A stretch of 64,000 nt of DNA from Patescibacteria group bacterium (lineage in GTDB: Bacteria > Patescibacteriota > Patescibacteriia > Magasanikbacterales > UBA922), in NCBI GenBank assembly GCA_018823045.1, contig JAHJIX010000016.1, forward strand, positions 2,961 through 66,960, read 5' to 3'. Of this stretch, positions 5,513 to 58,658 are shown piece after piece (the first letter of the stretch is position 1; every line of letters starts with the position of its first letter). The notes under the pieces are model-generated. The model did no database searches. It was not told the origin of the DNA and was given only the letters and a program-made list of their open reading frames with translations. Position numbers and translations under genes: made by a program.

Positions 5513-5569
5513 TAATTTGATATATTATTACATAAAAAACGTCTAGATTTAGGCGTTTTTTACTTCTAC

Positions 5570-5929: not shown

Positions 5930-6067
5930 GGAGCATTAACAACACATACCCAAGTCCCTGCACACCGTGTAAACTTGGGGGAAATAAAAAGGTTCTTATC
6001 GTTGATAGGGGCTTTTTTTGTTTCATTCTCTTGCATTTTTAGCCATTTTTTAGTAGGATATAGGTAT

Positions 6068-17621: not shown

Positions 17622-18230
17622 ATGAAAATAGATTTTCAGTTACCAACTGATGGAAAATATCATCAATATTGTATAAAGTGTAATTCTGAACATATTCATA
17701 AAATTATTAAGGATACTCGAACATATTATGAATGTGAAGATTGTAAAGACATATCTCCTCGTCTTATCGTTGTTGATCCAAAAATAGATTGTTGGGTAGA
17801 TGAAGACACAAAAGAATATTGGCATAAAAGTGTTGGAATCTTTGTGTTTAATGAAGACAACGAAGCATTGTTTTTTGAACGAGTTATGTATCCTTTTGTT
17901 TTTACTATTCCAGCGGGTCATCTTGATATAGGAGAAAAACCTGCTGAAGCAGTTAAAAGAGAGTTATTAGAAGAAACTGGTTTAAAAATAGATGCTGTAA
18001 AGTTTACTGTTCAAGAAAATATTATTGGTGATAAATGTTGGAGAGGTTCAGATAATCATATGTGGCATTTATATGTTGGAAAAATGAAAAAAACAAATAA
18101 TATCATATTAAATGATGAAGGAGTAAAAGCTACATGGTTGACATTAGAGCAAGCATTAAATGTTCCATTGCCTTATCCTGTTGAGTATTTTATCAAAAAA
18201 TATGGGAATTCATTATTTCAGGATGTATAA
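17622..18230 (+). CDS. Zn-ribbon-fused NUDIX hydrolase
   Basis: CIKCNSEH...CEDCKD four-Cys ribbon, then Nudix box GHLDIGEKPAEAVKRELLEETG. Confidence 0.7.
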   Translation: MKIDFQLPTDGKYHQYCIKCNSEHIHKIIKDTRTYYECEDCKDISPRLIVVDPKIDCWVDEDTKEYWHKSVGIFVFNEDNEALFFERVMYPFVFTIPAGHLDIGEKPAEAVKRELLEETGLKIDAVKFTVQENIIGDKCWRGSDNHMWHLYVGKMKKTNNIILNDEGVKATWLTLEQALNVPLPYPVEYFIKKYGNSLFQDV

Positions 18231-21102: not shown

Positions 21103-21672
21103 ATGGAAGACAAAAGATTATTATTTCACGTGTGTTGTGGACCGTGTAGTATTGCATTATTTGAAGAATTAAAAACAGCATATACAGAAGTGGTGGCATA
21201 TTTTTATAATCCAAATATTCATCCAGAAGCTGAGTATATAAAAAGACGAGATGTGGTCAAACAACTGTGTGAAAAAGCAGGAGTTCCGTTTATAGAAGGG
21301 CCGTATAATAAAGAACATTGGTTCGCTCTGACTGATGCATATAAGGCAAATAATGAAGGTGGAGCGCGTTGTAAGATTTGTTTTGATATGCGCTTAGAAG
21401 AAGCAATGCGTTATGCTGATGAGCAAAAGTTTGATATTGTTGCAACAAGTATCACGAGTGGGCGCAATAAGCGGGCTGATGTGATTAATCCATTGGGGAA
21501 TGTCTGGGCAGAAACATATGGGTTAACTTTTTTAGAAGCAGATTGGAAAAAAGGCGGACGACAAGAAAAGGGCATTCAGCTAGCAAAAGAGGAAGATATT
21601 TATCGCCAAGAGTATTGTGGTTGTATTTATTCAAAACTTGTGCGAGAGAAGAAAATAAAAGAAAAACAGTAG
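21103..21672 (+). CDS. queH: Epoxyqueuosine reductase QueH (DUF208)
   Basis: LLFHVCCGPCS ... YFYNPNIHP; conserved Cys cluster CGCIYS. Confidence 0.75.
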   Translation: MEDKRLLFHVCCGPCSIALFEELKTAYTEVVAYFYNPNIHPEAEYIKRRDVVKQLCEKAGVPFIEGPYNKEHWFALTDAYKANNEGGARCKICFDMRLEEAMRYADEQKFDIVATSITSGRNKRADVINPLGNVWAETYGLTFLEADWKKGGRQEKGIQLAKEEDIYRQEYCGCIYSKLVREKKIKEKQ

Positions 21673-22811: not shown

Positions 22812-22848
22812 TATAAAAAAACAGTGTAGTTCTACACTGTTTTTTTTA
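22812..22848. terminator. Bidirectional rho-independent terminator (A-run, acagtgtag/ctacactgt stem, T-run)
   Basis: Perfect 8-9-bp stem flanked by A7 and T8; lies between convergent lgt and tsaE and overlaps the tsaE stop. Confidence 0.7.
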
Positions 22849-23269
22849 TCATTCTTCCTCCATCTTTTGTATGCTCTAATTCAAGGAGAATAGTTTTTTT
22901 GTTTTTGAGTAGTTCTGTTATTTTTCCAGGCCATTCGATAATACAGAGTGTATTTGGACTTCCAAGATAGTCTTCAACACCTATGTCTTTGAGCCCTTCT
23001 TCATCTTCAAGTCGGTATGTGTCTATATGAACAAGTTCTGTAATCTTGTTTATTTCTTGAGGAAGTTCATACAAATTCATAAGAGTAAATGTTGGACTCG
23101 TAAGTGGTTCGGTGAGTCCGAGTCCTTGTGCAATACCTTTACTCAAGGTTGTTTTACCAGCACCAAGATCTCCTTGGAGTAATAAAATGTCACCAGCCTT
23201 GCAGGTTGATGCAATTTGCCTTCCAATAGCAATTTGTTCTTCTTCTGTTGACGGGTTAAATATTTCCAT
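22832..23269 (-). CDS. tsaE: tRNA threonylcarbamoyladenosine biosynthesis ATPase TsaE
   Basis: GDILLLQGDLGAGKTTLSKGIAQGLGL ... SPTFTL. Confidence 0.85.
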   Translation of the reverse strand: MEIFNPSTEEEQIAIGRQIASTCKAGDILLLQGDLGAGKTTLSKGIAQGLGLTEPLTSPTFTLMNLYELPQEINKITELVHIDTYRLEDEEGLKDIGVEDYLGSPNTLCIIEWPGKITELLKNKKTILLELEHTKDGGRMIKKTV

Positions 23270-23667: not shown

Positions 23668-23949
23668 ATGATAAAAAGTTTTTATTGTAAAGAAACAGAA
23701 AAAATATATCATGGTAAAAAAAGTCGCAAGTTGGCAATGCATATACAACGAAATACTATGCGTAAACTATGGATGATTCATGCTTCTATAGATATTGTAG
23801 ATTTACGTGTGCCACCTGCAAATCATTTAGAGCGATTAGTAGGAGATATGAAAGGATTTTTTAGTATTCGTATAAATAAACAATGGCGTATTTGTTTTCG
23901 TTGGAAACAAGGTCATGCTTACGATGTACATATTATTGATTATCATTAA
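23668..23949 (+). CDS. higB: Type II toxin HigB (RelE/ParE superfamily 'killer protein')
   Basis: 93 aa; conserved HigB-like C-terminus FFSIRINKQWRICFRWKQGHAYDVHIIDYH; immediately followed by a HigA-like gene. Confidence 0.75.
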   Translation: MIKSFYCKETEKIYHGKKSRKLAMHIQRNTMRKLWMIHASIDIVDLRVPPANHLERLVGDMKGFFSIRINKQWRICFRWKQGHAYDVHIIDYH

Positions 23950-23953
23950 CAAT

Positions 23954-24286
23954 ATGACAACAACATATTTACAAGCAATTCATCCAGGAGAAATTCTGTT
24001 AGAAGAATTTTTGACACCATTAGATATTTCTCAATATCGTCTAGCAAAAGATGTAGATGTACCACCAAGAAGGATTAATGAAATAGTGCATGCAAAAAGA
24101 TCTGTTAGTGCAGATACTGCTTTACGTTTAGCAAAATACTTTGGAGTTTCTGCTGAGTTTTGGCTTAATTTGCAAGCACAATATGATTTAGCTGTGCAAT
24201 CAAAAAAGATTTCAAAAGATTTAGAAAAAAAAGTAAAAGTACTTCATGTACAAGCAGTACAAAGTAATAATAAAGTAATAGTATAA
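23954..24286 (+). CDS. higA: Antitoxin HigA (XRE-family HTH)
   Basis: IHPGEILLEEFL ... LAKDVDVPPRRINEIVHAKRSVSADTALRLAKYFGVSAEFWLNLQ; start at the ATG at 23954 overlaps the higB end. Confidence 0.8.
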   Translation: MTTTYLQAIHPGEILLEEFLTPLDISQYRLAKDVDVPPRRINEIVHAKRSVSADTALRLAKYFGVSAEFWLNLQAQYDLAVQSKKISKDLEKKVKVLHVQAVQSNNKVIV

Positions 24287-26398: not shown

Positions 26399-26629
26399 AT
26401 GAATACTGCAAAAATATTTAAAAATGGACAAAGTCAAGCAGTTCGTCTTCCTAAAGAGTTTCGTTTTACTGAAGATGATGTATATATCAATAAAATAGGT
26501 GATGTTGTGCTGTTATATCCTAAAAAAAGTCCTTGGGATAGTTTAGAAAAAAGTCTTGATTTATTTACAGATGATTTTTTAGAAGAGAGAAATCAACCAA
26601 AGGATACTGACATACGTTCATCATTATAA
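26399..26629 (+). CDS. vapB: Antitoxin VapB (AbrB/SpoVT/MazE fold)
   Basis: AKIFKNGQSQAVRLPKEFRF swapped-hairpin motif. Confidence 0.75.
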   Translation: MNTAKIFKNGQSQAVRLPKEFRFTEDDVYINKIGDVVLLYPKKSPWDSLEKSLDLFTDDFLEERNQPKDTDIRSSL

Positions 26630-26639
26630 TAAAGTACAT

Positions 26640-27041
26640 ATGAAAAAATATTTATTAGATACGAATATTTGTATTTATATTATAAAAGAAAAGCCATATA
26701 CAGTAATCAAACAGTTAAAAAGTAAAAATATATCAGATATTGCTATTTCAAGTATTACTTTAGCTGAGTTAGAGTATGGAGTGGAGCATAGTAGTAAACC
26801 ATTACAAAATAGAATAGCCTTAAGTCAATTTTTAGCACCGATTGATGTGATTTCTTTTGATGGTATGAGTGCATATGAATATGGACGAATTAGAAATGAT
26901 TTACAGAAGAAAGGATCAATAATTGGACCATTAGATTTATTTATTGCAGCACACGCTGTATCATTAAATCGTATACTTGTAAGTAATAATATTAAAGAAT
27001 TTCAGCGGGTAGATGGTTTGAAAATAGAAAATTGGGTATAA
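26640..27041 (+). CDS. vapC: PIN-domain toxin VapC
   Basis: LLDTNICIYIIK N-terminal acidic-triad context; about 133 aa; directly downstream of vapB. Confidence 0.8.
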   Translation: MKKYLLDTNICIYIIKEKPYTVIKQLKSKNISDIAISSITLAELEYGVEHSSKPLQNRIALSQFLAPIDVISFDGMSAYEYGRIRNDLQKKGSIIGPLDLFIAAHAVSLNRILVSNNIKEFQRVDGLKIENWV

Positions 27042-27090: not shown

Positions 27091-28341
27091 TTAAGTAACT
27101 ACTTTTTTGTATAAAGGAAACTTTTCTGTAAGTGCTTGTACATTTTTACGTACATGTTCTAAAACAGTTTCATCTGTATGATTGCTCATTGTTTCATGCA
27201 TTAGGTCAGCCACAATTTCCATCTCAGCTTCTTTCATTCCTCTTGTGGTCAGCGCTGGCGTTCCAAAACGGATTCCAGATGGATCAAACGGTGAACGAGG
27301 ATCATCTGGGATCATGTTCTTGTTAAGAGTAATTCCTGCTTTATCAAGTGCCTCTTCGGCTTGTTTTCCAGTAATTTCTTTGCTTGTTACATCTACGAGA
27401 AGAAGATGATTGTCGGTTCCTCCAAACATAATATCATAACCAAATTCTTTGAATTTTCTTTCGAGTACTTTGGCATTTTTCTTTATTTGAAGAGCATACT
27501 CTTTAAATTCTGGTTCGAGTGCTTCTTTAAACGCAATCGCTTTGGCAGCAATATTGTTTTCATGTGGACCCCCTTGCAGTCCTGGGAAAACCGCTTTGTC
27601 TATTGCTTTTGCGTATTTTTTCTTACACATGATCATTCCACCACGAGGACCTCGAAGTGTTTTGTGTGTTGTCGTTGTAACAACATCAAAGATTGGTACT
27701 GGATTTTTCATTACTCCTCCGGCAATCAATCCTGCGATGTGAGCGATGTCTGCCATTGTTATGGCTCCTACTTCGTCTGCAATAGCTTTCACCTTGCCAT
27801 AATCAATTTCTCGTGAATACGCACTATATCCGACAAGGATAACCTTTGGTTTATGCTCCAAAGCCATCTCCCTGAGATTATCCATATCAATGAGACCGTT
27901 CTTATCAGTTTTGTATCGGATAAAGTTAAAGATCTGAGCAATACTCGTCACCGGATGTCCATGAGTCAAATGTCCACCATGAGACAAATCCATACCAAGA
28001 ATCGTATCACCCGGCTGCATGAGGGCAAAGTATGCAGCAATATTTGCAGGAGCACCAGAAAGTGGCTGAACATTTACATGCTCTGCCCCAAATATTTCTT
28101 TTGCGCGGTCAATGGCAAGTTGCTCAATTGTATCAATATGCTCACATCCGCCGTAGTATCGTTTTCCTGGATATCCTTCTGAATATTTATTGGTAAGGAC
28201 ACTTCCAAGCGCTTCAAGTACAGCAGGAGAAACAAAATTTTCTGATGGGATAAGTTCAAGACCTTGTTCTTGGCGATCAAGTTCATTGTCCATTGCTTTG
28301 CGAAGTTCTGGATCAAATTGTGCTATTGTTTGTTTATTCAT
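27091..28341 (-). CDS. glyA: Serine hydroxymethyltransferase
   Basis: PLP-lysine motif [14 protein letters not shown]; full-length, roughly 416 aa. Confidence 0.9.
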
Positions 28342-28432: not shown

Positions 28433-28888
28433 TTATTGATTATGTTTTTTATATGTCTCAACAACAGTCCGAACATTATCTGCAACGTTATCTGGCAATG
28501 CATCAATACCAAACCAATCCCATTCAATTGTCCTCTCTCCGGGTTCTACCTCATTGAGTCTTTTTGCAAGATAGTGAACTAAAAGAATCACTCCATTTGT
28601 TTTTGGATGTGGAATCATAATAGTATCAAGAGGGGAGAGAATCTCAATTTCTAAGCCTAATTCTTCCATCACCTCTCGTCTACAGGTATCTTCTAGTGGA
28701 AGGCTATAGTCATTTATTTTTCCACCTGGAATCATGAATTGTTTTTTCTCCAAACCATCTTTATCAAATTCACGATTAAGAAGAATCTTATTATCTTCTA
28801 TAATGACTGGCCCTACAGCAATAATAGATTGTTCTGGGATAAACATAGAGGCAATTGAGGTGATATTTACATAGTCGTAGTGTAGCAT
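28433..28888 (-). CDS. NUDIX hydrolase
   Basis: IPGGKINDYSLPLEDTCRREVMEELGLE Nudix box. Confidence 0.7.
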   Translation of the reverse strand: MLHYDYVNITSIASMFIPEQSIIAVGPVIIEDNKILLNREFDKDGLEKKQFMIPGGKINDYSLPLEDTCRREVMEELGLEIEILSPLDTIMIPHPKTNGVILLVHYLAKRLNEVEPGERTIEWDWFGIDALPDNVADNVRTVVETYKKHNQ

Positions 28889-30485: not shown

Positions 30486-30732
30486 TTTCTCCGCTGTAAG
30501 TAAATTGTCCAAAGGACATGCGCCACACCTTGTGTGACGGGTATTGTTCGACCAGAATGGAAGATCTATACCACTTAGTTTTACCTAAAACTAGATAAAA
30601 TTAACTAATATAGATGATATAACGGCGTACCTTAGCATATTTTGAATGTTTTGTCAAGTCGAGTGTAGTGGAGGATAAAAAAAGAAAGCAGGGGAGTGCT
30701 TCTTTTTTTGCTAGAATAGGTTGTTGTTGCAA

Positions 30733-30790: not shown

Positions 30791-32476
30791 TTATATGTTT
30801 TTCACCATATACGTCCCAATTTTTCTATACCCTAATTTACGATAATATCCACGTACACCAACACCAGAAATAACAGCAATTTTGCTTTGTTTTGCTTCTT
30901 TTTTCACTAATTCTTCTGCTTTTATCATCAGTTGTGTCCCGAGTCCTTTATGTTGGCTTGCTCCGTGGTCTGTTTTCCCGATTTTTACTAATTGGCCGTA
31001 TACATGCAGTTCGCGAACAAATGCACAGTCTTTGATTTCAGGAATAGTCTTTTGTAATATATCAGTTTCATTCTTTCTCATCCATGACTCTATATTGTGT
31101 TCATGAGGAATACGGAGGCGTAAAAAGCCATAGACTGCAATACGATTTGGATCTTCTACCGTAATAAAATGCTCTGTGCCACCAGAGGTTTTGTATGTAT
31201 CTACGAAGATTTCTGTTCGTTTATCACCTTTGAGTTGTGTTTGTTGACGGCCAATTTCACGACAACGTAAACAAGCACAGGTGTTTCCTTGTTCTATCAT
31301 TTTTTTATGTAGGGCTTCTCTGAGATTGGTAATGCTATTACCCGCTTGAATATCTGGAGTTGGAATATCTCGAATAAGACGAGAAATACGACAGTATCGT
31401 GGGGTAGCTTTTTTCATTTCAATTAACGCATTAAAAAGCTCTTTATCTCCATATGGTGTGTAGCGTCCATCTTTAAACCATTCAGCAAGCTCAGCTGTTT
31501 CAATCACCGTATTTGGATAAATTTTTACCATGTCTGGTTTGAGTGCAGGGTCTTCAAAAAGTAGTTTATACATTTCTACATCATGTGCTGGCGTTGTCCC
31601 AGGCAAATCTGGCATGAAGTGAAGATCTACTTTAAAGCCAGCTTCACGGAGTAGATACATAGCACGACGAAATTCATCGACGTTATGTCCACGTTTCACT
31701 AAAGAAAGAATCTTATCATCAGGTGCTTGGAGGCCAAGTTCAATACGCGTACAGCCTTGTTTGCGCATGTGGGAAATGGTTTTTGGCGTTACTGCATCTG
31801 GGCGTGTTTCAAGCGTAAGCCCAATAATACGATGTTTTGCCCCTTCATTATACCGTTGTTCTTTTTCCATGGCATCTTGAATAGCACTGAGTGGTTTATT
31901 GCACCAGTCTTCTTCTGTTGTTTGTGCTGTAGGTTTCCGGCGAGATAAATTATTACACGCACGAAATGATTCTAAGATATACCAATATTGATACACGAGT
32001 GGATATGCATTCCAGGTACCACCTTTTGTAATATATTCAATTTTGTCTGTTGGGTGACCATTGGCTTCAAGCATCTCGATTCGTTTTTGCATGAGTGGAT
32101 AGGGGTGGAAATTGAGTGCAAGTGAGCGTGCAGCTGCAGGTTCACTTGATAAATAGCTTTTTGGCATGCGTGCCTCTGTTGGGCAATACACACATTCACC
32201 TGGGCAAGCGTATGGTTTGAGCAGCGATGTAATGACTGCAATACCAGATTGGCTGCGAATTCCCGCTTTTACCACAAATTGTCTGAGAGCCAAATTGGGT
32301 TTAATCCTTTTCTTTTTTACTAAATTTTGATAGGCTTGTAGGAGTAGGCGGTTTGCTGGTTGATTTATTCGTAGGCGACTACAGGTTTTTCTTCGTACAG
32401 CATCAAACTGAGCCTTTGTTTGAGGATTATTCTCTATAATATCTAAAATAATTGTTTCTAAATCTTCTTGTTTCAT
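30791..32476 (-). CDS. elp3: Elp3-family radical SAM + GNAT acetyltransferase (tRNA U34 cm5 modification enzyme homologue)
   Basis: Radical SAM CPGECVYCPTE (Cx3Cx2C); roughly 560 aa with a C-terminal GNAT-like region; overall Elp3 architecture. Confidence 0.75.
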   Translation of the reverse strand: MKQEDLETIILDIIENNPQTKAQFDAVRRKTCSRLRINQPANRLLLQAYQNLVKKKRIKPNLALRQFVVKAGIRSQSGIAVITSLLKPYACPGECVYCPTEARMPKSYLSSEPAAARSLALNFHPYPLMQKRIEMLEANGHPTDKIEYITKGGTWNAYPLVYQYWYILESFRACNNLSRRKPTAQTTEEDWCNKPLSAIQDAMEKEQRYNEGAKHRIIGLTLETRPDAVTPKTISHMRKQGCTRIELGLQAPDDKILSLVKRGHNVDEFRRAMYLLREAGFKVDLHFMPDLPGTTPAHDVEMYKLLFEDPALKPDMVKIYPNTVIETAELAEWFKDGRYTPYGDKELFNALIEMKKATPRYCRISRLIRDIPTPDIQAGNSITNLREALHKKMIEQGNTCACLRCREIGRQQTQLKGDKRTEIFVDTYKTSGGTEHFITVEDPNRIAVYGFLRLRIPHEHNIESWMRKNETDILQKTIPEIKDCAFVRELHVYGQLVKIGKTDHGASQHKGLGTQLMIKAEELVKKEAKQSKIAVISGVGVRGYYRKLGYRKIGTYMVKNI

Positions 32477-32477
32477 T

Positions 32478-33182
32478 ATGAAAAATTACAACGAACAGAA
32501 TAAATCTGTCTATAATAAGATATCTGCGATATTTGCCCAAACAAGAGGCTATGTATGGCATGATATTGCACCACTTATCTCATATACGCACGATGGAGAC
32601 ACTGTTCTTGATCTTGGTTGTGGTACAGGTAGATTATACCAGCTTTTTCAAGAATTTCAAGGGGAGAAGGGAGTTTCTTACATTGGAGTGGATCATAGCG
32701 AGGGGCAAATTGAGGTCGCAAAAAAACAATATCCTCAGGCAAATTTTCAAGTAGGAGACATGCTCGCTATTTCTTTGGCTGATAATACTGTCGATATTGT
32801 GTATAGTATTGCTGCATTTCATCACTTATCAACCGAGGAAACACGCTTGCAAGCGCTTGCTGAAATGAAAAGAGTGTTGCGTCCAGGTGGCATTATTGCT
32901 ATGACCAACTGGTTTTTAGATAGTACCTATGCACGCAATAAATTATCATCGGGTAAATGGCATTATGGAGAAACAAAAAAAGATGTGATCATCCCATGGA
33001 GAAATGCAGATGGCAGTGTCGTTGGAGAGCGGTATTATCATGCTTTTGATATGGATGAAATGGAAGATCTTTTGGCACGTACTGGATTTTCTGTAGTTGA
33101 GCAATATTTGAGTGAGCCAGCGCCAGAGAGTAATGATACAGAAGGGAAGAACTTTATTACTGTGGCTCGTTTGAATACATAA
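32478..33182 (+). CDS. Class I SAM-dependent methyltransferase, Trm9-like (tRNA carboxymethyluridine methyltransferase family)
   Basis: IFAQTRGYVW (Trm9 F-x-x-TR...W), SAM motif VLDLGCGTGRL, C-terminal PWRNADGSVVGERYYHAF (Trm9-like RYYHxF). Confidence 0.6.
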   Translation: MKNYNEQNKSVYNKISAIFAQTRGYVWHDIAPLISYTHDGDTVLDLGCGTGRLYQLFQEFQGEKGVSYIGVDHSEGQIEVAKKQYPQANFQVGDMLAISLADNTVDIVYSIAAFHHLSTEETRLQALAEMKRVLRPGGIIAMTNWFLDSTYARNKLSSGKWHYGETKKDVIIPWRNADGSVVGERYYHAFDMDEMEDLLARTGFSVVEQYLSEPAPESNDTEGKNFITVARLNT

Positions 33183-34199: not shown

Positions 34200-35081
34200 T
34201 TACTCTCCAGTGACAATACATACGACAGCCCCATCCCAAGTCCAACCGGCTTGTACTGCTTTTTTAATTCCAACAAGTCCGAGAATTCCATTTGGTGAAA
34301 GGGTCATCTTTGTGGTTCTTTTAACCAGAGTAATCATGTCTTTAATTTCTTTATTTGTGACAACCCATCCACTACCATGTGTTTGGTTGATCGCAGAAAT
34401 AACTGATAATTTTCTATGTGCAACGCGATCACAAATTGCAGGGGCTACTGTCGTGCTTGTTGGCTCCACGTCTGTATCAAAGATACTTGCTATAGGAGAA
34501 CACGCGCTTGTTTGTACGATATGAATTTGAGGAACATGATTCATATCGGTAAATACTTCTGCAATTCCTTGTGCAGTTGTTCCTGATGATGTTGGAATAA
34601 ATATTGCTTGTAGGTCAGGAATTTTACTTAATTCTTGCCCTAAACTGTAATAACCACGTAGAGCCGTATCATCAGTTGACTGGCGTAAAGAAACTGCTTC
34701 ACCTTTTTTATCTTTTTGAAAAGCCATTTGTTTTGGGTTGTCTACCTGAGAGATATGAATGGAGTCAGAAATATATGCTTGTAGTCGTGTTAATTTATGT
34801 TTTGTAATATTTTTGCCAACTAAAATTTCAAGAGATATTGGTTTTTCTGGATTATTTTTATTATGATTTTCTACAGTGATTGCTGCTGCAAGCGCTGCAT
34901 TTCCTGATGATGAAATAACAAAATGACCAACGTTTTTTCGTTTATAATATTCCTTTATCATGAGTGGGATAGATCGTCCTTTGTGTGATCCATAGGAATG
35001 CTGGTCTTCTCGTTTGAGCCATAAGTCTTTTACACCGATAGTACGAGCCAGAAAGGGATATTGTTTTTGAACTGTTTTCAT
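34200..35081 (-). CDS. PLP-dependent enzyme of the tryptophan-synthase-beta superfamily (threonine synthase-like)
   Basis: LWLKREDQHSYGSHKGR resembles the PLP-lysine region of threonine synthase/PALP enzymes; Gly-rich SSGNAALAAA. Confidence 0.5.
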   Translation of the reverse strand: MKTVQKQYPFLARTIGVKDLWLKREDQHSYGSHKGRSIPLMIKEYYKRKNVGHFVISSSGNAALAAAITVENHNKNNPEKPISLEILVGKNITKHKLTRLQAYISDSIHISQVDNPKQMAFQKDKKGEAVSLRQSTDDTALRGYYSLGQELSKIPDLQAIFIPTSSGTTAQGIAEVFTDMNHVPQIHIVQTSACSPIASIFDTDVEPTSTTVAPAICDRVAHRKLSVISAINQTHGSGWVVTNKEIKDMITLVKRTTKMTLSPNGILGLVGIKKAVQAGWTWDGAVVCIVTGE

Positions 35082-35152
35082 AAGGAAAATATTGAAAAAT
35101 TGTGTGATTGTGTTATAATAGGCCTAAAAGAGTATTAAGTCAACTATTTTAT

Positions 35153-35317
35153 ATGAAAATTACTTGTGTTGAGTGTAAAAACAATGTGGATATGTCTGCT
35201 TACTCAGAGGTAAAAGTAGATAATGTTATTGAGTGTAATCATTGCGGAATTACCTTAGTTGTTACCAGTATTGTCGATGACATTGCTGAAGTTGATGTTA
35301 TGGATGAAGGAAAATAG
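35153..35317 (+). CDS. Small zinc-ribbon protein, LysW-like (4 Cys, acidic C-terminus)
   Basis: MKITCVECK ... CNHCG; acidic tail EVDVMDEGK; 54 aa from the ATG at 35153. Confidence 0.35.
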   Translation: MKITCVECKNNVDMSAYSEVKVDNVIECNHCGITLVVTSIVDDIAEVDVMDEGK

Positions 35318-35351: not shown

Positions 35352-36281
35352 CTAGTATATCTGGATTTTTTTGTTTACTTGTCTATGAGAACGAAGGACA
35401 AAAAAGAGTAATAAAACACAAAGGATAATAATTGGGTAACGTAGTTTATTGATGACAAAAGATATTGTCTGGCCTGCCGTGTATGGTTTTGCTTTTGTTA
35501 TGAGTATTTCTTTTTGTATGTTGTGGAGTTTCTTATTACTATCAAGAACATCAATATAGACCGTATATGTGCCTATAGGTAGATCAGTTGGAATATCGAC
35601 AAGTAGTGTGTGATATGTTTGCTCTGGGATGTGTTCTGTTGGAGTAATGACATGTTTTTCAAGAATGGTATGTCTGTCATCATAAATACGACTATATATT
35701 TTTTGTATTGCATTAGTATCATTTCCTGCATTTTCTATATAGAGTGCTAGGCGAATATTTCCTTGAATATTCCACCAAAAGAGTTCTTGTGTATCAATGG
35801 CTTCGGCAATATTGAGTTCATGAATATGGACTTTTTTGATTGAGTCAACAACATGTATGGCTATTTTTGCTTGTACAGATGTGAGGCTTTGTACACCATC
35901 AAGTATTCCTGTTTTTTTCGGGACAGGAATGGTCGTAATATTGAGGAGCCCTTTGTATGTTTGTATATTTGCATCTTCTGGTATGTGTAGTTGAATAGTA
36001 ATGTCTTTTTTTTCTTCTCCTGCATAAAAAGGGACAATATAATCAGTGATATTTTCAAAAGTAATCCAATTTTGTGTGAGTGGAAGGTTTAAATTAAGTT
36101 TAAAATATTCATCTGTTGTTTGTTCTTGGCGGATAATGCTAATAGTTAATGTTTCTGTTGTTCCCGGAAGTATTGTCGTTTCAATAACTGCAGGGCTTAT
36201 ACCTAAAGCAGATACAGAATGTACAAAAAAGAGACTAGAAAAAATAATGTTCAAGAAAAAGAATAAACTGTTTTTTTTCAT
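35352..36281 (-). CDS. Surface protein: N-terminal signal peptide, beta-rich ectodomain, C-terminal TM anchor
   Basis: MKKNSLFFFLNIIFSSLFFVHSVSA signal; C-terminal PIIILCVLLLFFVLRSHRQ. Confidence 0.45.
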   Translation of the reverse strand: MKKNSLFFFLNIIFSSLFFVHSVSALGISPAVIETTILPGTTETLTISIIRQEQTTDEYFKLNLNLPLTQNWITFENITDYIVPFYAGEEKKDITIQLHIPEDANIQTYKGLLNITTIPVPKKTGILDGVQSLTSVQAKIAIHVVDSIKKVHIHELNIAEAIDTQELFWWNIQGNIRLALYIENAGNDTNAIQKIYSRIYDDRHTILEKHVITPTEHIPEQTYHTLLVDIPTDLPIGTYTVYIDVLDSNKKLHNIQKEILITKAKPYTAGQTISFVINKLRYPIIILCVLLLFFVLRSHRQVNKKIQIY

Positions 36282-36290
36282 ATGAAAATA

Positions 36291-39200
36291 TTATGGCCAG
36301 GGTGTATCATTGATTGTTGCAGAATAGGTTGTAAATCCACTATACGTTCCAGCAGCCGTTGGCATAGGTATTGATAATCCCCACCAAAGAGTTGATGTGT
36401 TGTTTTGTGTGGAAGTGTTTTTGGGAATATCAAGCTCAAGCATCACAGGAGAATTTGTTAGTATTGTACTTGATGCAAAAGGAATTGATGATGTTGCATA
36501 TACGCGAGAACCAACAGGGATGCTGTGATTATTAGAGTTCATCGCTGTTCCAAATAATAATAGGTCAAGAGAAATATTTCCTGTGGAAGTTATTGTGAGT
36601 GTTTTATCAATTGGGTCATTTTTTTCTCCGACTGCGAGTGCACCAAAATTTGTGCTATCTGACACTGTAATAGCAAGAAGAGAAGACATGTCTGTCGTAT
36701 CAACGGGGCTAAACCCGCTGTGTGTTTGGCTTAGTGAATCATAGGCTTGAATCCATACACGCCAATATTCATTTGTCCAGGGTGTTCCAGCATCAGTTGG
36801 TTCAGCAAAAAATTGAATGTCAGCTGAGCAAGTTGCGGTACATGAATTTCCAGAACAGTTACTGAGTGAACATGAAAAAATTTCATAGCAGTTATTTTCG
36901 TCTGATGCACAATATTCTGCTCCACCAACACCTGATCGATACATTTTTGCACTGACAAAACTAATATCACTATATCCATCTGGGTCAGTAATGGTGGCTG
37001 TAGCAGAAACAGTAGTCGTTGTATTTTCTGTGAGTAAGATATGTTCATCGCCATTGAGTGAAATATTGCTTACCGTCGGTGATTCATTTGCTGGTGTGTA
37101 GGTGACTGTTGCATAGGTTGAGTAGAGTTGTGATGATGTTACAGGGGTTGTGTTATTCGTATTGACAAATTTAACACGTAAACCATCGAGTTGACTTTGG
37201 GTGAGAGATAAGCTAGAGAAGGTTGCACTATCCCAAGTGTTTGATGTGCTTACTGCGAGTTGTTGGGTTATCCCGTATTGTGTTGTTTCTGTGCTATCCC
37301 ATAATTCAACATCCCATTGCATGTTTGCATTACCATTGTTGTGGTAGGCAAAGACTTGTATTTCTGTTGCAGTGCCGACATTGCTTAGTGTTGTCATTTG
37401 TAGCAGAGTACTTTCTGTATCGTTACAAGTAATATAATCAGAAGTATCTGGAGTTGTTGGGAGTCGTGTCGCATCGTCAACAGTTGTATAATCACTTCCT
37501 CCGGGTGTTGGTGTACAAGATGATGTGCCATCTCCATCTGGGTCAATGGTGCCAACTGCATCAGAGGCAATATGCCATTGTCCTGATTCTTCAAATGTGC
37601 CAATAAATCGAGGGGTGGTTGTTGATATATATACATCATTAGAAGTACTGTCTAATTGAAATGGTCCTAATAAAAATAAATATGGACTAATATTTGGTGC
37701 ATCAAACGTATACGAAAGAATATAGCTATCACCAGCATGCCATGAAACGTCTGCACGTATTTCTGTACTATGACTATTTTGAGAAATAGTCAGTGGGGTA
37801 GAGGAGGTTGGACCAATTTGTTGTGGAATGAGTTCCATGTGTTTCACTGTAAAGCTTTGTGGCATTGGTTCAATAAATGTCCCTTCAAAATCTTCATTAA
37901 CGGTAATCGTTACTTCCATTGGATAATCAGCTGGTGGATAAATACGTGTTGGCCCAACACGAGAAATATCAAATGGCGTATATGATTTTACATCAAAAAA
38001 ATCAGTGATCATGGCTGTTGTGTCGAGATTGGTTAAGCGAATGCCATAACGTCCTTCGCTTGTTGGTGTGTACGTAGTAAAATAATCAGGGACATCAATA
38101 ACATTGTCTGGTCCACAAAGACCACTTGTTTGAATATTTGGTGTGCTCACATTGCCATTTGGTGCTGTGATTTCGAGTAACAGTTGTGCATCACAGAGTG
38201 TATGGCCATCTGCATTAAGTGCTGCCATGTGAATGTGTGCGGTATCTTTTGTGATATAAATAGATTTGTCAGTATTGACTGCAAGTACGCCAAAGGTAAA
38301 GTCTTCTTGGTGAATAACAATATCTTCTGCTTCATAAATGAGTACTTCAAGAGTATATGTTCCAGATGGTATTTCTCTTTTTTGTTGTTGAGGAATAGAG
38401 ACAGTAAATGTATTATTTGGGTATGGCACAATTTGAGGAATAATGTTGGTCATTTCTTGTTGTTCACTATTATAAATATGTGCTTCAATTCGGACTTCAT
38501 CAAGAGAAATACTTTGGCTGGGTTGTTTTTTTGTTGCATCATAATTAAAAATAAAAAGAGCCTCATCTTCAAGAGAAAAATCTTTTTGTGTTGAAATAAA
38601 TGAAACCACATTTTTTGCAGGGTCGCTTGTTTCTGCTTCCAGTTCAATCCAAATTGCGTCTAAAAAGAGCATGTTTTCTGGGAGTATTCCTTCTGTTGAG
38701 ATAGTCACACGAATTTCCATTTGTTGTAATTCTTGGGGTGTGGAGACCTGTTTGAGTGGATAAGAAAAATAATCATTATTGCTTGCATTTGATCTTGCCT
38801 CTTCTAATGATAGGGTAACAAGTTTTTTCCATGTGTTCTTTTTTTTGTATTCAATAGTGATTGTGCCTTCTGAAATTGCTTGATGCGCTAAAGAAAGCAT
38901 GATATATGGATTTGAAAATTCATCATGAAGATACGTGCTTGCTTTTTCTTGTATGGTAAAGTGAGATAGTTCTAAGGAAAGTTCTTGTTTTGGTTGTTTT
39001 TTCTCTTTTTTCTCTTTTTTCTCTTTTTTATCAGATTGAATTGTTGCGGAAGGACTTGCTGTCGGTGTGCTGCTTACAAATTCAAATGATTCTGTAGAAG
39101 TTGCTTGTTGTGTTTCTGCGCTAGTTACTGTTGGAGTCTCAATTGATTCTATTGGAAGATCTACGAGAATCTCTTCTGTTGTTGTTTCAATTATTTCTTC

Positions 39201-40034
39201 AGTCGGAGGAGCTTCTTCAATAGGAGAAATTTCTGGGATTGTTTCTTCAATGATAACTTCAGGCATTGGTTCTGGTTCGGGTGCTGGAGTTTCAATAGTT
39301 TCTTCTACAGCAGAAGCTTCTGGTTCAGGGGTTGGTGTTTCTACAGAGAGCGCTTCTTCTGTTGATTGTGCCCAGGCTTCTGAAATAGAAAAAAGTGAAA
39401 GAAACCATTGTTTGGTATTAAAAAATGATAAATCTCCTGATTCGCTTGTTTCTTCATTTTTTTGATTCTTTTCCTCCTTTTTTTCTTTTGTATTATCTTC
39501 AGGTGTTTCAACTTCTTCAATAATAACTTCAGGCGCTGGTTCATGAGCAGGTATTTCAAGTATTTCTTCATCTTCTTCGATTATGTCGTCCTCCTGTTCA
39601 GTTTCTTCTTCAATAATAGCTTCAATTATTTCTGTAGAGGTTACAATTTCTTTTGTTGTTGAGGGTGTTATAATATCTCCAACAAGTGGCAAGGTGACTG
39701 TTTCTTGAGGAGAGGTAAATTGAGGTACTGTAGGTGTATCTGTTTGTATTTGTGGTGTATTGCCTTCATTATGTGCAATAAACAAAGAGATGTCTGCTGT
39801 ATTTGGAAGGTCTATTTGTTTGAGTTGATCAAGATTATTCCAATCACCAGAAATAATTTGAGGAATTGCGGTGAGGGTAATTTCATCATGAGAAAATGAT
39901 AAGGTTGGAATGGTATAGCCAACAACAAAAAGAATTGCAATAGATATTACAATAAAAGAAATAGATAGATGTGATACCTTTTTTATCCAATTCATGCAGG
40001 TATTATAGCATGTTTTTTTCTTAATTTCCAACAA
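36291..40034 (-). CDS. Giant (1247 aa) membrane-anchored surface protein with an acidic/Pro/Thr-rich low-complexity stalk and C-terminal beta-rich domains
   Basis: N-terminal TM ISFIVISIAILFVVGY; EEIIEE/PEPE/KEKKEKKEKK low-complexity tracts; long S/T-rich repeats. Confidence 0.5.
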   Translation of the reverse strand: MLEIKKKTCYNTCMNWIKKVSHLSISFIVISIAILFVVGYTIPTLSFSHDEITLTAIPQIISGDWNNLDQLKQIDLPNTADISLFIAHNEGNTPQIQTDTPTVPQFTSPQETVTLPLVGDIITPSTTKEIVTSTEIIEAIIEEETEQEDDIIEEDEEILEIPAHEPAPEVIIEEVETPEDNTKEKKEEKNQKNEETSESGDLSFFNTKQWFLSLFSISEAWAQSTEEALSVETPTPEPEASAVEETIETPAPEPEPMPEVIIEETIPEISPIEEAPPTEEIIETTTEEILVDLPIESIETPTVTSAETQQATSTESFEFVSSTPTASPSATIQSDKKEKKEKKEKKQPKQELSLELSHFTIQEKASTYLHDEFSNPYIMLSLAHQAISEGTITIEYKKKNTWKKLVTLSLEEARSNASNNDYFSYPLKQVSTPQELQQMEIRVTISTEGILPENMLFLDAIWIELEAETSDPAKNVVSFISTQKDFSLEDEALFIFNYDATKKQPSQSISLDEVRIEAHIYNSEQQEMTNIIPQIVPYPNNTFTVSIPQQQKREIPSGTYTLEVLIYEAEDIVIHQEDFTFGVLAVNTDKSIYITKDTAHIHMAALNADGHTLCDAQLLLEITAPNGNVSTPNIQTSGLCGPDNVIDVPDYFTTYTPTSEGRYGIRLTNLDTTAMITDFFDVKSYTPFDISRVGPTRIYPPADYPMEVTITVNEDFEGTFIEPMPQSFTVKHMELIPQQIGPTSSTPLTISQNSHSTEIRADVSWHAGDSYILSYTFDAPNISPYLFLLGPFQLDSTSNDVYISTTTPRFIGTFEESGQWHIASDAVGTIDPDGDGTSSCTPTPGGSDYTTVDDATRLPTTPDTSDYITCNDTESTLLQMTTLSNVGTATEIQVFAYHNNGNANMQWDVELWDSTETTQYGITQQLAVSTSNTWDSATFSSLSLTQSQLDGLRVKFVNTNNTTPVTSSQLYSTYATVTYTPANESPTVSNISLNGDEHILLTENTTTTVSATATITDPDGYSDISFVSAKMYRSGVGGAEYCASDENNCYEIFSCSLSNCSGNSCTATCSADIQFFAEPTDAGTPWTNEYWRVWIQAYDSLSQTHSGFSPVDTTDMSSLLAITVSDSTNFGALAVGEKNDPIDKTLTITSTGNISLDLLLFGTAMNSNNHSIPVGSRVYATSSIPFASSTILTNSPVMLELDIPKNTSTQNNTSTLWWGLSIPMPTAAGTYSGFTTYSATINDTPWP

Positions 40035-52789: not shown

Positions 52790-54832
52790 ATGGCAAAAGA
52801 AACGTCACATATGAGGAAGAAAATTCGTACACGGCTTATATTTGTTGGTTTGGTGGCAGTACTTGGGCTTGCTTTTATTTTTCCAACACAGTTAAATAAA
52901 GCAATTGACGGGGTAAATAATACTGTTGCATTGGGTATCCCACGATTACCAGAACAAGGATTTTTGCTCGGTCTTGATTTACAAGGTGGAGCACATTTGA
53001 TGTATCAAGCAGATGTATCAAATATTCCTACAGATAATCAAGGTGAAGCAGTTGATGGCGTTCGTGATGTCATTGAACGCAGGATTAATGCACTTGGTGT
53101 GAGTGAATCAAATATTCAAGTAGCAAAAGTAGGAAATGATTATCGCTTAAATATTGAAATGCCAGGAATTGATGATGTGAGTACTGCAATCAATTTGATT
53201 GGAGAAACACCAATTTTAGCATTTAAAGAAGAAAATCTTGATCCGCCACGAACATTAACGGCGGAAGAAGCAGAACAAATTGAAACATATAATAATGAGA
53301 TGAGCGAACGTGCTCTTGCTGCAAAAACGGCATTAGAAGCTGGAACAGATATGGCAAGTGTCGCATCAGAATATTCACAAGATCCATCAAGTAAAGATAA
53401 TGGTGGTAGTTTTGGGTTTATTAATAAAAATACACAATATGGCCCTGAGGTATATAATTGGGCATCAACACATACTGATGGAGATATTTCAGATGTGATT
53501 GAAACATCATATGGCTACTTTACGCTTGTGCGCGGTGTAGAGCAAGAAGGTGAGCCTGAAGTAAGCGCAAGTCATATTCTTATTTGTTATCTTGGGGCAA
53601 CACAATGTAATGAACCAAAATATACAAAAGAAGAGGCACTAGCAAAAGCACAAGAAATTTTTGACATGGCAAATGCAGATAATTTTGCAGATCTCGCTGC
53701 TGAACATTCTACAGATCTTGCAAATAAAGATAATGGTGGTGATTTAGGTGCTTTTACCCGAAGTATGATGGTCCCTGCATTTTCAGATGCTGCATTTAAT
53801 GCAAATGTTGGAGAAATTATTGCACCAGTTGAAACAGATTTTGGGTATCATGTTATTTATAAAACAGATGAAGGAATCTTGCCTGAATACGATGTTTCAG
53901 GTGTGTTTATTGCAAAATTACAAGAACGAGATATTTTAGGACCACAAGATGAGTGGAAAAATACAGGACTTTCAGGAAAACAACTTGATCGTGCTGAAGT
54001 TGTCACTGATTCTCAAACAGGGTCAGTACAAGTATCTCTTCAATTTGACCAAGAAGGAAAAGAATTGTTTTCGGAGTTAACAGAAAAAAATATTGGGAAA
54101 CCGATTGCAATTTTCTTAGATGGTAATCCAATTAGTGTGCCAACAGTTCAATCAGTCATTACTGGTGGACAAGCGGTTATCACTGGGGATTTTACCATAA
54201 CAGAGGCACGTGAGTTATCTCAACGCTTAAATACTGGTGCGCTTCCTGTACCTATTGAGTTGATTTCTCAACAATCTATTGGTGCAACACTTGGTGCCGA
54301 GTCACTTGCAAAAGGTTTGACCGCTGGTATTATTGGTATTATCTTGGTCATGATTTTCATGGTGGGATATTATCGACTACCTGGTGTATTATCTGTGCTT
54401 TCATTATCAATATATATTATATTTACTCTTGCAATCTTTAAGTTGATTCATGTAACGTTAACGCTTGCAGGTATTGCTGGGTTTATCTTGTCAATTGGTA
54501 TGGCGGTGGACGCTAATGTGCTTATCTTTGAGCGATTAAAAGAAGAATTACAAGATGGAAAGAGCTTGAAAGCCGCGGTAGAAGAAGGGTTTATTCGTGC
54601 ATGGACATCTATTCGTGATGGAAATGCATCAACACTCATTACTTGTTTACTCTTAATCTGGTTTGGATCAAGTTTTGTACAAGGATTTGCGGCAACATTG
54701 GCAATTGGTATTTTGCTTAGTATGTTTACTGCAATTACCATTACTCGTTTCATGCTTCGCTATGTGGTCCCGTGGTTCCCATCACATGGAAACAAGTTAT
54801 TCCTAGGATATTCTTCAAAAAAAGAACAATAA
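52790..54832 (+). CDS. secD: Protein-export membrane protein SecD with two inserted parvulin (PpiC) PPIase-like domains in the periplasmic head
   Basis: SecD N-terminal TM and C-terminal 5-TM core (GIAGFILSIGMAVDANVLIFERLKEE). Inserted segments: VSASHILICYL ... DLAAEHSTDLANKDNGGDLGAFTRSMMVPAFSDAAFNANVGEIIAPVETDFGYHVIYK (classic PpiC) and a degenerate second copy ASEYSQDPSSKDNGGSFGFI...SYGYFTLV. Confidence 0.8.
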   Translation: MAKETSHMRKKIRTRLIFVGLVAVLGLAFIFPTQLNKAIDGVNNTVALGIPRLPEQGFLLGLDLQGGAHLMYQADVSNIPTDNQGEAVDGVRDVIERRINALGVSESNIQVAKVGNDYRLNIEMPGIDDVSTAINLIGETPILAFKEENLDPPRTLTAEEAEQIETYNNEMSERALAAKTALEAGTDMASVASEYSQDPSSKDNGGSFGFINKNTQYGPEVYNWASTHTDGDISDVIETSYGYFTLVRGVEQEGEPEVSASHILICYLGATQCNEPKYTKEEALAKAQEIFDMANADNFADLAAEHSTDLANKDNGGDLGAFTRSMMVPAFSDAAFNANVGEIIAPVETDFGYHVIYKTDEGILPEYDVSGVFIAKLQERDILGPQDEWKNTGLSGKQLDRAEVVTDSQTGSVQVSLQFDQEGKELFSELTEKNIGKPIAIFLDGNPISVPTVQSVITGGQAVITGDFTITEARELSQRLNTGALPVPIELISQQSIGATLGAESLAKGLTAGIIGIILVMIFMVGYYRLPGVLSVLSLSIYIIFTLAIFKLIHVTLTLAGIAGFILSIGMAVDANVLIFERLKEELQDGKSLKAAVEEGFIRAWTSIRDGNASTLITCLLLIWFGSSFVQGFAATLAIGILLSMFTAITITRFMLRYVVPWFPSHGNKLFLGYSSKKEQ

Positions 54833-57689: not shown

Positions 57690-58658
57690 ATGTGGTTTCA
57701 AAATATATTAGATAATAATCAAAAAATACTAGCACTGGCACCGATGGCAGATATGACTGATTCTCCATTTTGTCAAACAGTCAAGCATATTGGTGGCTGT
57801 GATATTGTTTTTCGCGAAATGGTCTCAAGTGAGGCATTAGTGCGAGATAATGACAAGACATTGTATATGACAGATTTTGATACGGCTGAACGACCAATTA
57901 TTCAGCAGATTTTTGGTGCAGATCCGTTGACTATGGCACAAGCAGCTGTGATTGTAATGGAGCGGTCACATCCTGATGGGATTGATATTAATATGGGTTG
58001 TCCTGTGCATAAAATTACGAGCAATTTTAATGGGTGTTCGCTCATGCGTGATGCGGATAAGGCTGGGGAAATTGTAAAAGAAATGAAGCAAGCCATTGGA
58101 GATACGCCATTGTCAGTAAAGATTCGTTTGGGTTGGAATGACCCTGATACTTTTAAAACATTCATTCCGGTACTTGAGGAGGCTGGAGCTCAGTTAATTA
58201 CCGTGCATGGCCGTACACGAGCGCAAGGGTATAGCGGAGTAGCAGATTGGAATCGTATTGCTGAAGCCAAGCATATAGCAACAGTACCTCTTTTGGCTAA
58301 CGGAGATGTGTTTACGCCAGAGTTAGTATCAAAGGCACTTGAAGTGACTGGAGCCGATGGGGTGATGATTGGGCGTGGTTCTCTTGGAAATCCGTGGTTT
58401 TTTTCTTTGGCGAAAGCAGGAGAGGGGAATGAAAGTGTTTCAATAGAAAAGCGAGTACAAATGATACTCTATCATCTTGATTTGCATTTGGCGCATTATG
58501 GAGAAAAGGGAATTGTTACGTTTAGAAAACATTTAGGGTGGTATATGAAATCTCAATCATTAGGGCAAAACATTCCAGGGATAAAGCAATTTCGGGGTCA
58601 ATTGGTTCAAGCATCTTCGCGGCAAGAAGTTGTGGATATATTAAATACTCTTCATTAA
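57690..58658 (+). CDS. dus: tRNA-dihydrouridine synthase
   Basis: LALAPMADMTDSPF N-terminus, TIM-barrel Dus motifs (NMGCPVHKI). Confidence 0.8.
   Translation: MWFQNILDNNQKILALAPMADMTDSPFCQTVKHIGGCDIVFREMVSSEALVRDNDKTLYMTDFDTAERPIIQQIFGADPLTMAQAAVIVMERSHPDGIDINMGCPVHKITSNFNGCSLMRDADKAGEIVKEMKQAIGDTPLSVKIRLGWNDPDTFKTFIPVLEEAGAQLITVHGRTRAQGYSGVADWNRIAEAKHIATVPLLANGDVFTPELVSKALEVTGADGVMIGRGSLGNPWFFSLAKAGEGNESVSIEKRVQMILYHLDLHLAHYGEKGIVTFRKHLGWYMKSQSLGQNIPGIKQFRGQLVQASSRQEVVDILNTLH

Follow-up and report, generated by a model that had tools for sequence, protein, structure and literature searches.

The elp3 gene and the gene of a Trm9-like class I S-adenosylmethionine (SAM)-dependent methyltransferase, which stand back to back in a 64-kb stretch of Patescibacteria DNA (the window, in its whole length), probably form a two-step module for the modification of the wobble uridine (U34) of tRNA, a reading to which a probability of about three in four is given. 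In textbook accounts, wobble-uridine C5 modification is carried out by MnmE/MnmG in bacteria, and by Elp3/Elongator together with Trm9 in archaea and eukaryotes. In this module, 5-carboxymethyluridine (cm5U34) would be formed first and converted afterwards to 5-methoxycarbonylmethyluridine (mcm5U34). The assignment is based on family membership judged from sequence, on structure prediction, on residue conservation and on gene linkage, from which the enzymatic activities, the products and the co-regulation of the two genes are inferred. Hereafter, the methyltransferase is the plus-strand gene of the pair or its product. The window, in which SecA, SecDF, MurB, Lgt, ComEC, QueH, a Mur ligase and a probable TsaE are also encoded, is by its sequence bacterial and from the candidate phyla radiation (CPR), with a host close to Candidatus Magasanikbacteria.

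In the proposed pathway, the stand-alone Elp3 would use its basic N-terminal extension and its central cleft to bind the anticodon stem-loop. The [4Fe-4S] cluster of Elp3, held by C91/C95/C98, would cleave SAM to give a 5'-deoxyadenosyl radical, which would activate acetyl-CoA in the GNAT domain, and a carboxymethyl group would be placed on C5 of U34 to give cm5U34. The methyltransferase would then methyl-esterify the carboxylate of cm5U34 using SAM, giving mcm5U34; the carboxylate would be held in place by R23 and H116, and the uracil would be recognised by H115 and N225, with W145 stacked on it. The two genes are divergent, with starts one base apart, and the predicted promoters lie within the coding sequence of the partner. 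The first step is proposed because of orthology to the biochemically characterised archaeal Elp3, for which the cm5U chemistry is established (PMC7663514, PMC6367351), and the second because of orthology to Trm9, for which the mcm5U-forming chemistry is established in yeast and Haloferax (PMC4678810, PMC6144793). Given the tight linkage of the two genes, the Elp3 product would be the substrate of the methyltransferase.

Table 1. Features of the gene pair and of its surroundings in the window.
Feature	Position	Strand	Description	Basis
elp3	30791..32476	-	561 aa; radical-SAM and GNAT domains, basic N-terminal extension	ORF (open reading frame) listing, TIGR01211, Pfam, PDB matches
Trm9-like class I SAM methyltransferase	32478..33182	+	234 aa; predicted tRNA cm5U34 carboxyl O-methyltransferase	best PDB relative 5cm2_Z
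Back-to-back start codons CAT-T-ATG	32474..32480	.	one base separates the minus-strand ATG of elp3 from the ATG of the methyltransferase
Promoter-like TTGAGG-18-TAAAAT	32420..32449	+	candidate methyltransferase promoter within elp3, in its first ~19 codons	9/12 consensus positions
Promoter-like TGGGCA-16-TATTAT	32512..32539	-	candidate elp3 promoter, antisense to methyltransferase codons around the invariant Tyr12
Promoter-like TTGAAA-16-TATAAT with upstream TG	32633..32660	-	alternative candidate elp3 promoter, inside the methyltransferase gene	11/12 consensus positions
TATAAT antisense to Tyr12, in relatives			listed for L012, L014-L017, L020, L022, L030, L035
Terminator-like hairpin	30521..30539	-	~250 nt past the elp3 stop; 8-bp stem, 5 G-C pairs, T-rich tail	consensus match only
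glyA, serine hydroxymethyltransferase	27091-28341	-	a few kb from the pair
PALP (pyridoxal phosphate-dependent) enzyme	34200-35081	-	near the pair
LysW-like zinc ribbon	35153-35317	+	54 aa; divergent from the PALP gene; only small zinc-ribbon ORF in the window
309-aa protein	35352-36281	-	follows the 1247-aa protein	no significant Pfam domain
1247-aa protein	36291-40034	-	signal/anchor-like N-terminus; acidic and Pro/Thr/Glu-rich low complexity	no significant Pfam domain
SecD-like protein	52790-54832	+	680 aa; two PpiC-type isomerase domains before the SecDF P1 head and C-terminal membrane domain

Identity of the two proteins

A sequence-only reading of this DNA had placed an elp3 homologue with the motif CPGECVYCP and a GNAT domain on the minus strand and, one base from its start codon on the other strand, a methyltransferase with the motifs FAQTRGYVW, VLDLGCGTGRL and RYYHAF. 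The radical-SAM motif and the GNAT domain were both found in the gene at the coordinates claimed, the three motifs lie at residues 19-27, 43-53 and 185-190 of the methyltransferase, and the single base between the two start codons can be read directly from the junction DNA (...gtttCAT T ATGaaa...). The start calls of both genes appear credible given that both N-termini align with homologues from the first residues, with the TIGR01211 alignment beginning at residue 12 of Elp3 and the N-termini of the methyltransferases being alike across loci. The GC content of the pair is about 40%, like that of the surrounding DNA, which argues against a recent island.

Elp3 scores 491.2 bits against TIGR01211, for a cut-off of 350, and the alignment covers residues 12-561 of the protein and positions 5-522 of the model; the family assignment is thus upheld above a curated threshold and from end to end. 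Pfam identifies Radical_SAM (PF04055), Radical_SAM_C (PF16199) and a C-terminal GNAT domain, and the protein matches the PDB entries 6ia8 (archaeal MinElp3) and 5l7j (bacterial DmcElp3) with E values of about 1e-101. More than 100 clusters at 90% identity are 62% or more identical to it, indicating strong conservation in CPR, and the gene is already annotated as Elp3 by the NCBI pipeline.

The Fe-S triad C91/C95/C98 lies within CPGECVYCP (residues 91-99), and the corresponding CX3CX2C motif (91-98) is kept in all 43 relatives examined. The zinc motif CxCxxC is found at 400-405 and the acetyl-CoA motif QHKGLG, of the Q/RxxGxG type, at 508. In a HMMER alignment to 6ia8, for which the offset of the chain versus the native numbering was inferred, K145, K282, E489, H491 and Y544 are the equivalents of the acetyl-CoA-site residues K150/K77, K266/K193, Q461/E386, H463/H388 and Y517/Y441 of MinElp3/DmcElp3, which are needed for acetyl-CoA handling (Lin et al. 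2019, PMC6367351). The radical-SAM cysteines, the zinc motif and the acetyl-CoA residues are all present, in agreement with the Elp3 identity that had been proposed. The first 75 residues contain 16 K/R versus 6 D/E, and the alignment with MinElp3 begins at residue 34. In archaeal Elp3, the basic N-terminal extension confers tight tRNA binding (PMC6367351).

Elp3 was formerly described as a histone acetyltransferase, a name that the PDB entries keep, and the window protein could in principle be an acetyltransferase of proteins or other substrates, or an unrelated radical-SAM enzyme, in a pair that does not act on tRNA. This is very improbable, given that the basic tRNA-binding N-terminus and all active-site residues checked are kept, and that the conserved partner is a methyltransferase of tRNA type.

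Pfam and NCBIfam have no Trm9-specific model and could not decide the identity of the methyltransferase. Among solved structures, the top match by phmmer, family profile, hhalign and Foldseek was the Trm9 of Yarrowia lipolytica, in line with the Trm9 identity that had been suggested from the motifs. As a single sequence, the best PDB match by phmmer is 5cm2_Z (3.9e-15, residues 20-208). The profile of the family, built from 37 sequences, also places 5cm2_Z at the top (8e-29, 103 bits, full length), while the next match, limited to the SAM domain, reaches 86 bits; Trm9 alone extends to the C-terminal half. The alignment of the family with Trm9 by hhalign has a probability of 99.7% (E 3e-26, score 168), and Yarrowia Trm9 is also rank 1 in Foldseek for the AlphaFold2 model of the methyltransferase (predicted local distance difference test score of 94.8). 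The identity to this group (Trm9 of yeast and Yarrowia, the methyltransferase domain of ALKBH8 and HVO_1032 of Haloferax) is only about 24-28%.

Mutagenesis of the yeast enzyme ScTrm9 has identified R29, D72, H116, W145, W168, R241, Y243 and N271 as required residues (Létoquart et al. 2015, PMC4678810). The first four correspond to R23, D72, H116 and W145 in the window methyltransferase, and the remaining four to W174, R185, Y187 and N225; likewise, Y18 and H115 of ScTrm9 correspond to Y12 and H115. Seven of the eight equivalents of essential residues are invariant or at least 90% conserved in a 35-sequence alignment of the family (A2), in which W174 is not listed. Invariant are D72, H116, W145, R185, Y187 and N225, as well as Y12, while the conservation of R23 is at least 90%. 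Motif I (VLDLGCGTGR) and D72 are invariant in the family alignment. The equivalents are kept in most of the Elp3-linked homologues, in which W174 and Y187 vary somewhat, and in the wider family the position of W174 is occupied by W and sometimes by F or Y. The generic methyltransferases retrieved in the same genome scan are without the whole C-terminal PW...RYYH...N motif set.

A neighbour-joining tree was anchored on the Yarrowia Trm9 sequence and on archaeal loci, with the best 150 profile matches all belonging to the CPR-type family. A 65-member clade joins the window methyltransferase to Yarrowia Trm9, to two archaeal homologues and to every Elp3-linked homologue from bacteria, and leaves out all generic methyltransferases; its bootstrap is only 63% and its internal order is not resolved. 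About 1,900 representatives of clusters at 50% identity match the family profile at E<=1e-30, and the JGI pipeline calls a homologue of 82% identity 'tRNA (uracil-5-)-methyltransferase TRM9'. Taken together, the window methyltransferase is closer to Trm9 than to other characterised methyltransferases, by moderate margins.

It is hardly credible that the methyltransferase is an ordinary small-molecule enzyme of UbiE type, found near elp3 through inherited gene order. The Pfam and NCBIfam families that it matches are generic, and include Ubie_methyltran at 1.6e-9, and many homologues are labelled 'class I SAM-dependent methyltransferase' or 'UbiE' by NCBI and JGI. Nonetheless, the NCBIfam models of UbiE/MenG give only 38-61 bits for cut-offs of 158-420 (61 versus 216 for NF001244 and 51 versus 158 for TIGR01934), and this identity was rejected. 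The C-terminal, substrate-side PW...RYYH...N motifs are common to Trm9 and the methyltransferase, and the linkage to Elp3 is kept where all flanking genes have been replaced, and also in other phyla (Chloroflexota, Fermentibacteria and a crenarchaeon). The profile, the hhalign comparison, the UbiE scores and the tree, with its bootstrap of 63%, all keep the methyltransferase apart from the small-molecule enzymes with which it might have clustered.

CmoM was also considered as an identity and rejected. By BLASTP, the E. coli protein is 26% identical (E 2e-4) in a match that is confined to the SAM domain, its hhalign comparison gives 96.3% (E 2e-9, score 67), and it has neither the HH nor the RYYH motif.

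Linkage and divergent layout of the pair

In a scan centred on the methyltransferase, based on the family alignment with one genome per species, 80 loci were divided by profile score and motifs into 57 of the family and 23 generic. Elp3 is divergent and within 350 nt in 31 of the 52 family loci that could be evaluated, and in tandem in two, which gives 33 adjacent pairs; it is found within 4 kb in nine more, for a total of 42 linked loci. Near the generic methyltransferases of the same scan, it is found in none of 19 evaluable loci. When the loci are centred on Elp3, the methyltransferase is upstream on the opposite strand in all 22 that could be evaluated (4/4 look-ups and 18/18 metagenome loci). 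Elp3 is the divergent upstream neighbour of all four methyltransferase homologues with 53, 44, 36 and 34% identity, and it was not found near a Peregrinibacteria homologue with 33% identity. Given these counts, the adjacency of the two genes is far beyond chance, and the conservation of the pair in relatives, on which the sequence-only reading depended, is confirmed from both sides.

The linkage persists even where every other neighbouring gene differs. Linked pairs are found in many CPR lineages, in Chloroflexota (Aquidulcis, Anaerolineales and others), in one Fermentibacteria genome and in one crenarchaeon. The layout is not divergent in two loci. In L013, from a Candidatus Gracilibacteria, Elp3 is followed by the methyltransferase on the same strand after a gap of 10 nt; Gracilibacteria use an altered genetic code, which bears on the limits of the reading frames in this locus. 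In L046, from Crenarchaeota, the genes are in tandem with the methyltransferase first and a gap of 1 nt.

Seven loci (L027, L029, L034, L036, L039, L043 and L049) come from metagenome-assembled genomes titled 'uncultured Gammaproteobacteria bacterium' and carry Elp3 and methyltransferase of CPR type. Their Elp3 proteins are 42-46% identical to that of the window, and some have CATG-overlapping starts. The taxonomy of these records is probably wrong.

The distance between the start codons in the 41 divergent pairs of the methyltransferase-centred loci is -2 in seven, 0 in two and +2 in two, and it is at most 50 nt in 25; the gene calls of the source records, in the Elp3-centred look-ups, put it at 2-52 nt. 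A distance of -2 corresponds to the palindrome CATG, in which two ATGs share two bases. This overlap is seen in L014, L017, L018, L020, L022, L023 and L027, which are unrelated-looking CPR, and two more loci have CATATG. Overlapping divergent initiation codons are an unusual arrangement overall, yet recurrent here, and the window junction is typical for the pair.

Given that there is almost no spacer between the starts, each promoter or 5' end must be located inside the coding sequence of the partner. Of this mutual embedding, which had been deduced earlier from the junction alone, the geometry is real and recurrent, whereas the promoters themselves are predicted only and the matches to the consensus are no commoner than in shuffled sequence (14 sites in the scan versus 11 +/- 3.9). 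The best match of the 3-kb consensus scan is the site at 32633..32660, which precedes the elp3 ATG by about 157 nt. Antisense to the x-Tyr12-Asn13 codons of the methyltransferase, at a distance of about 35-50 nt ahead of the elp3 start, a perfect TATAAT is found in 10 of 25 tightly paired loci, versus 1 of 34 others. The window equivalent is TATTAT (32512-32517). This hexamer may be a -10 box set in the codon of a catalytic-site residue, or may reflect AT-rich codon usage or shared ancestry; because phylogeny and GC content confound the comparison, it is taken as a lead only.

Weight of the evidence for mcm5U34 formation

Several points weigh against the formation of mcm5U34 by this pair. Pfam and NCBIfam match the methyltransferase to generic class I families only, with Methyltransf_11/25 at about 1e-23, the margin of Trm9 over other class I methyltransferases in Foldseek is modest, and the bootstrap of the Trm9 clade is only 63% in a quick neighbour-joining tree. 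The position of Y187 (Y243 in ScTrm9) is occupied by Y, V, I, C or L in the wider family. Ten of the 52 family loci are without Elp3 inside 4 kb, several of them from Peregrinibacteria/Peribacteria. Trm112, which is obligatory for the yeast/eukaryotic and the Haloferax Trm9 (PMC4678810, PMC6144793), has no match (PF03966) among the reading frames scanned in the 64 kb of the window. According to reviews, evidence for xcm5U derivatives is lacking in bacteria (PMC7663514), and no biochemical or nucleoside evidence exists for cm5U or mcm5U in CPR bacteria. In yeast and Haloferax devoid of Trm9, cm5U is reported to be channelled into other products (PMC3110198), and for this reason the order of the steps is not fully settled.

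Part of these observations would also be compatible with a methyltransferase of Trm9 descent, linked to Elp3, with a product or substrate other than canonical mcm5U34: another Elp3-derived side chain, a thiolated form only, or another carboxylated U34. The variation at Y187, the presence of F or Y at W174 in some members, the failure to find Trm112 in the window or as a fusion, and the identity of just about 25-30% between the CPR/Chloroflexota subfamilies and Yarrowia Trm9 can all be read in this way, and the tRNAs of Haloferax carry U34 derivatives that are still unidentified (PMC6144793). Nonetheless, the residues proposed to contact the carboxylate and the uracil (R23, H115/H116, W145, R185 and N225) vary little or not at all, an Elp3 product is the substrate to be expected from the tight linkage to Elp3, and E. 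coli CmoM, which acts on cmo5U, is a far poorer match. A differing product is therefore unlikely.

Lower still is the probability that the methyltransferase depends on a Trm112-like activator that is lacking here, in which case the pathway would stop at cm5U or drift to 5-carbamoylmethyluridine (ncm5U), with a methyltransferase that is inactive or serves some other purpose. The requirement of the yeast and Haloferax enzymes for Trm112, of which none was found in the 64-kb window or fused, speaks for it, but a window of this size is too small to show absence from the whole genome. Moreover, the catalytic residues are under strong purifying selection across very divergent lineages, and the family has about 1,900 cluster representatives at E<=1e-30, two facts that are hard to square with an inactive protein. 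The two-step formation of mcm5U34 is kept as the preferred reading.

No fusion to Trm112, to Elp3 or to a tRNA-binding domain was found among the longer members of the methyltransferase family, in which the additional domain is NUDIX or WecG only. P0194 and P0232 are putative methyltransferase-NUDIX fusions of about 380 aa. WecG is a neighbouring gene in some methyltransferase loci, and the WecG fusions may be read-through gene calls. The PALP enzyme and the LysW-like zinc ribbon (34200-35317) were considered as members of the pathway or as a substitute for Trm112, and were rejected given that they accompany the pair in the closest clade only and carry no Trm112 signature.

With respect to the canonical bacterial route, MnmE, MnmG and MnmA are not encoded within the 64-kb window. 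The Rfam and tRNA scans of the window gave no match, and the substrate tRNAs are thus not seen there. A broader proposal is that Elp3-Trm9 replaces MnmE/MnmG across Patescibacteria/CPR and parts of Chloroflexota, as a Trm112-free route to mcm5U34 encoded by a fixed bidirectional unit with mutually embedded promoters, including a -10 box antisense to Tyr12. In this full form, the proposal is plausible but tentative, and more doubtful than probable.

Neighbouring genes and relation to known systems

Next to the pair, the order Mur ligase, zinc ribbon, PALP, methyltransferase and Elp3 recurs in L001, L088, L090, L091 and the P0003 contig, and the PALP/zinc-ribbon block is missing from more distant lineages. 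Relative to the order in L001, the genes of the 1247-aa and 309-aa proteins are inserted between the zinc ribbon and the Mur ligase; the larger product is probably a lineage-specific surface protein. The glyA gene is within a few kb of the pair, or of a lone methyltransferase, in L001, L004, L025, L029, L036, L039, L049, L090 and L091, in which the other flanks differ. Its proximity could be a remnant of older synteny, or reflect a connection with one-carbon/SAM supply.

Other genes for tRNA modification are present in the window (21103-21672, plus strand; 22832-23269, minus strand; 57690-58658, plus strand), which between them encode QueH, a dihydrouridine synthase and a probable TsaE. The TsaE call is that of a P-loop reading frame and was made through the TsaE Pfam match of the syntenic gene in L001 and L091.

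By its predicted domains, the SecD-like protein unites a foldase of periplasmic type with a translocon accessory subunit, which is an unusual combination. Four NUDIX hydrolase genes are found at 1863-2411, 2413-3324, 17622-18230 and 28433-28888, and in the second of these the NUDIX model is matched in two stretches. Two toxin-antitoxin-like couples, at 23668-24286 and 26399-27041, were judged from the sequences only, with no family search: one has a RelE/HigB-like reading frame of about 93 aa that overlaps a 123-aa helix-turn-helix frame, and the other a 76-aa frame followed by a PIN/VapC-like frame of 133 aa. The GC content peaks at 45% at 5001-6000, for about 36% in the window, around an unannotated reading frame of 119 aa (5570-5929). 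This frame is located between sugar-nucleotide genes and glycosyltransferases, and its alternative frames are Arg-rich.

In the Elongator literature, bacterial Elp3 is a curiosity of Dehalococcoides without a known downstream enzyme or product. A complete pair of Elp3 and a Trm9-type methyltransferase, conserved through a very large bacterial radiation, would provide a pathway context for bacterial Elp3. The pair predicts nucleosides of mcm5U type in bacteria, where a pathway thought to be almost absent may be routine, and it bears on the relation of the CPR translation apparatus to the archaeal one. It also offers small enzymes, free of Elongator and possibly of Trm112, for mechanistic work, and its CATG-overlapping divergent starts are a compact natural case of control regions embedded in the coding sequence of a partner.

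Reviews confine bacterial Elp3 to Dehalococcoides (PMC7663514), while a paper from 2026 attributes Elp3 to 'numerous bacteria'. No paper on Elongator or Elp3 in CPR, or on a bacterial Trm9, was found in a literature search that had most subscription journals outside its reach, and this search gave no relevant paper on MnmG, mnmE or gidA in Patescibacteria/CPR. The earlier statement that such a pathway is rarely if ever described in bacteria is therefore correct for the searchable literature, but not for the annotation pipelines, which already name both proteins (Elp3 by NCBI and a TRM9 homologue by JGI).

The Elp3 of the window has the architecture of radical-SAM and lysine acetyltransferase domains in common, from end to end, with the archaeal Elp3 of Methanocaldococcus infernus/jannaschii and with DmcElp3 of Dehalococcoides mccartyi. 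The Cys triad, the zinc motif, the acetyl-CoA motif and the key Lys, Glu, His and Tyr residues are alike, and other Elongator subunits are missing in all cases. Like MinElp3, it has a basic N-terminal extension of about 75 residues ('archaeal-type'), whereas DmcElp3, the only structurally studied bacterial Elp3, has no such N-terminus and is weakly active (PMC6367351, PMC7663514). The Fe-S segment of MinElp3 is CPHGKCIFC, a CX4CX2C arrangement, versus CX3CX2C in the window protein and its 43 relatives, and the host differs from that of the archaeal proteins in being a CPR bacterium.

The methyltransferase has the class I fold and the equivalents of the essential residues that are found in Trm9 (yeast and Yarrowia, 5CM2), in the methyltransferase domain of ALKBH8 and in HVO_1032 of Haloferax. 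It also has in common with Trm9 the N-terminal Y-x-x-I-A-x-x-F-x-x-T-R helix and the functional link to Elp3. It has no AlkB or RRM domain, and its gene is physically paired with elp3; a Trm112 partner, which Trm9 has, was not found for it in the 64-kb window or in fusions of the family. For Haloferax, the formation of mcm5U by a Trm9-Trm112 enzyme was shown in 2018 (PMC6144793). MnmE/MnmG, which form xm5U34, and CmoA/CmoB/CmoM, which form 5-carboxymethoxyuridine (cmo5U) and its methyl ester (mcmo5U), act on the same position and solve the same decoding problem with enzymes unrelated to those of the pair; CmoM resembles Trm9 in that it methyl-esterifies a carboxylate of the U34 side chain.

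The closest precedent for the gene arrangement is that of Sulfolobus solfataricus, in which the genes of Elp3 and Trm9 cluster, a fact taken as evidence of a common U34 pathway (Grosjean et al. 2008, PMC2584109). The physical clustering is the same, and the crenarchaeal L046 is likewise tandem with genes 1 nt apart, while the bacterial pairs are almost always divergent, with abutting or overlapping starts, and are found in Patescibacteria and Chloroflexota. Both enzyme families and the pathway were thus already known; new are the host range, the fixed layout of the divergent genes and, possibly, the independence from Trm112.

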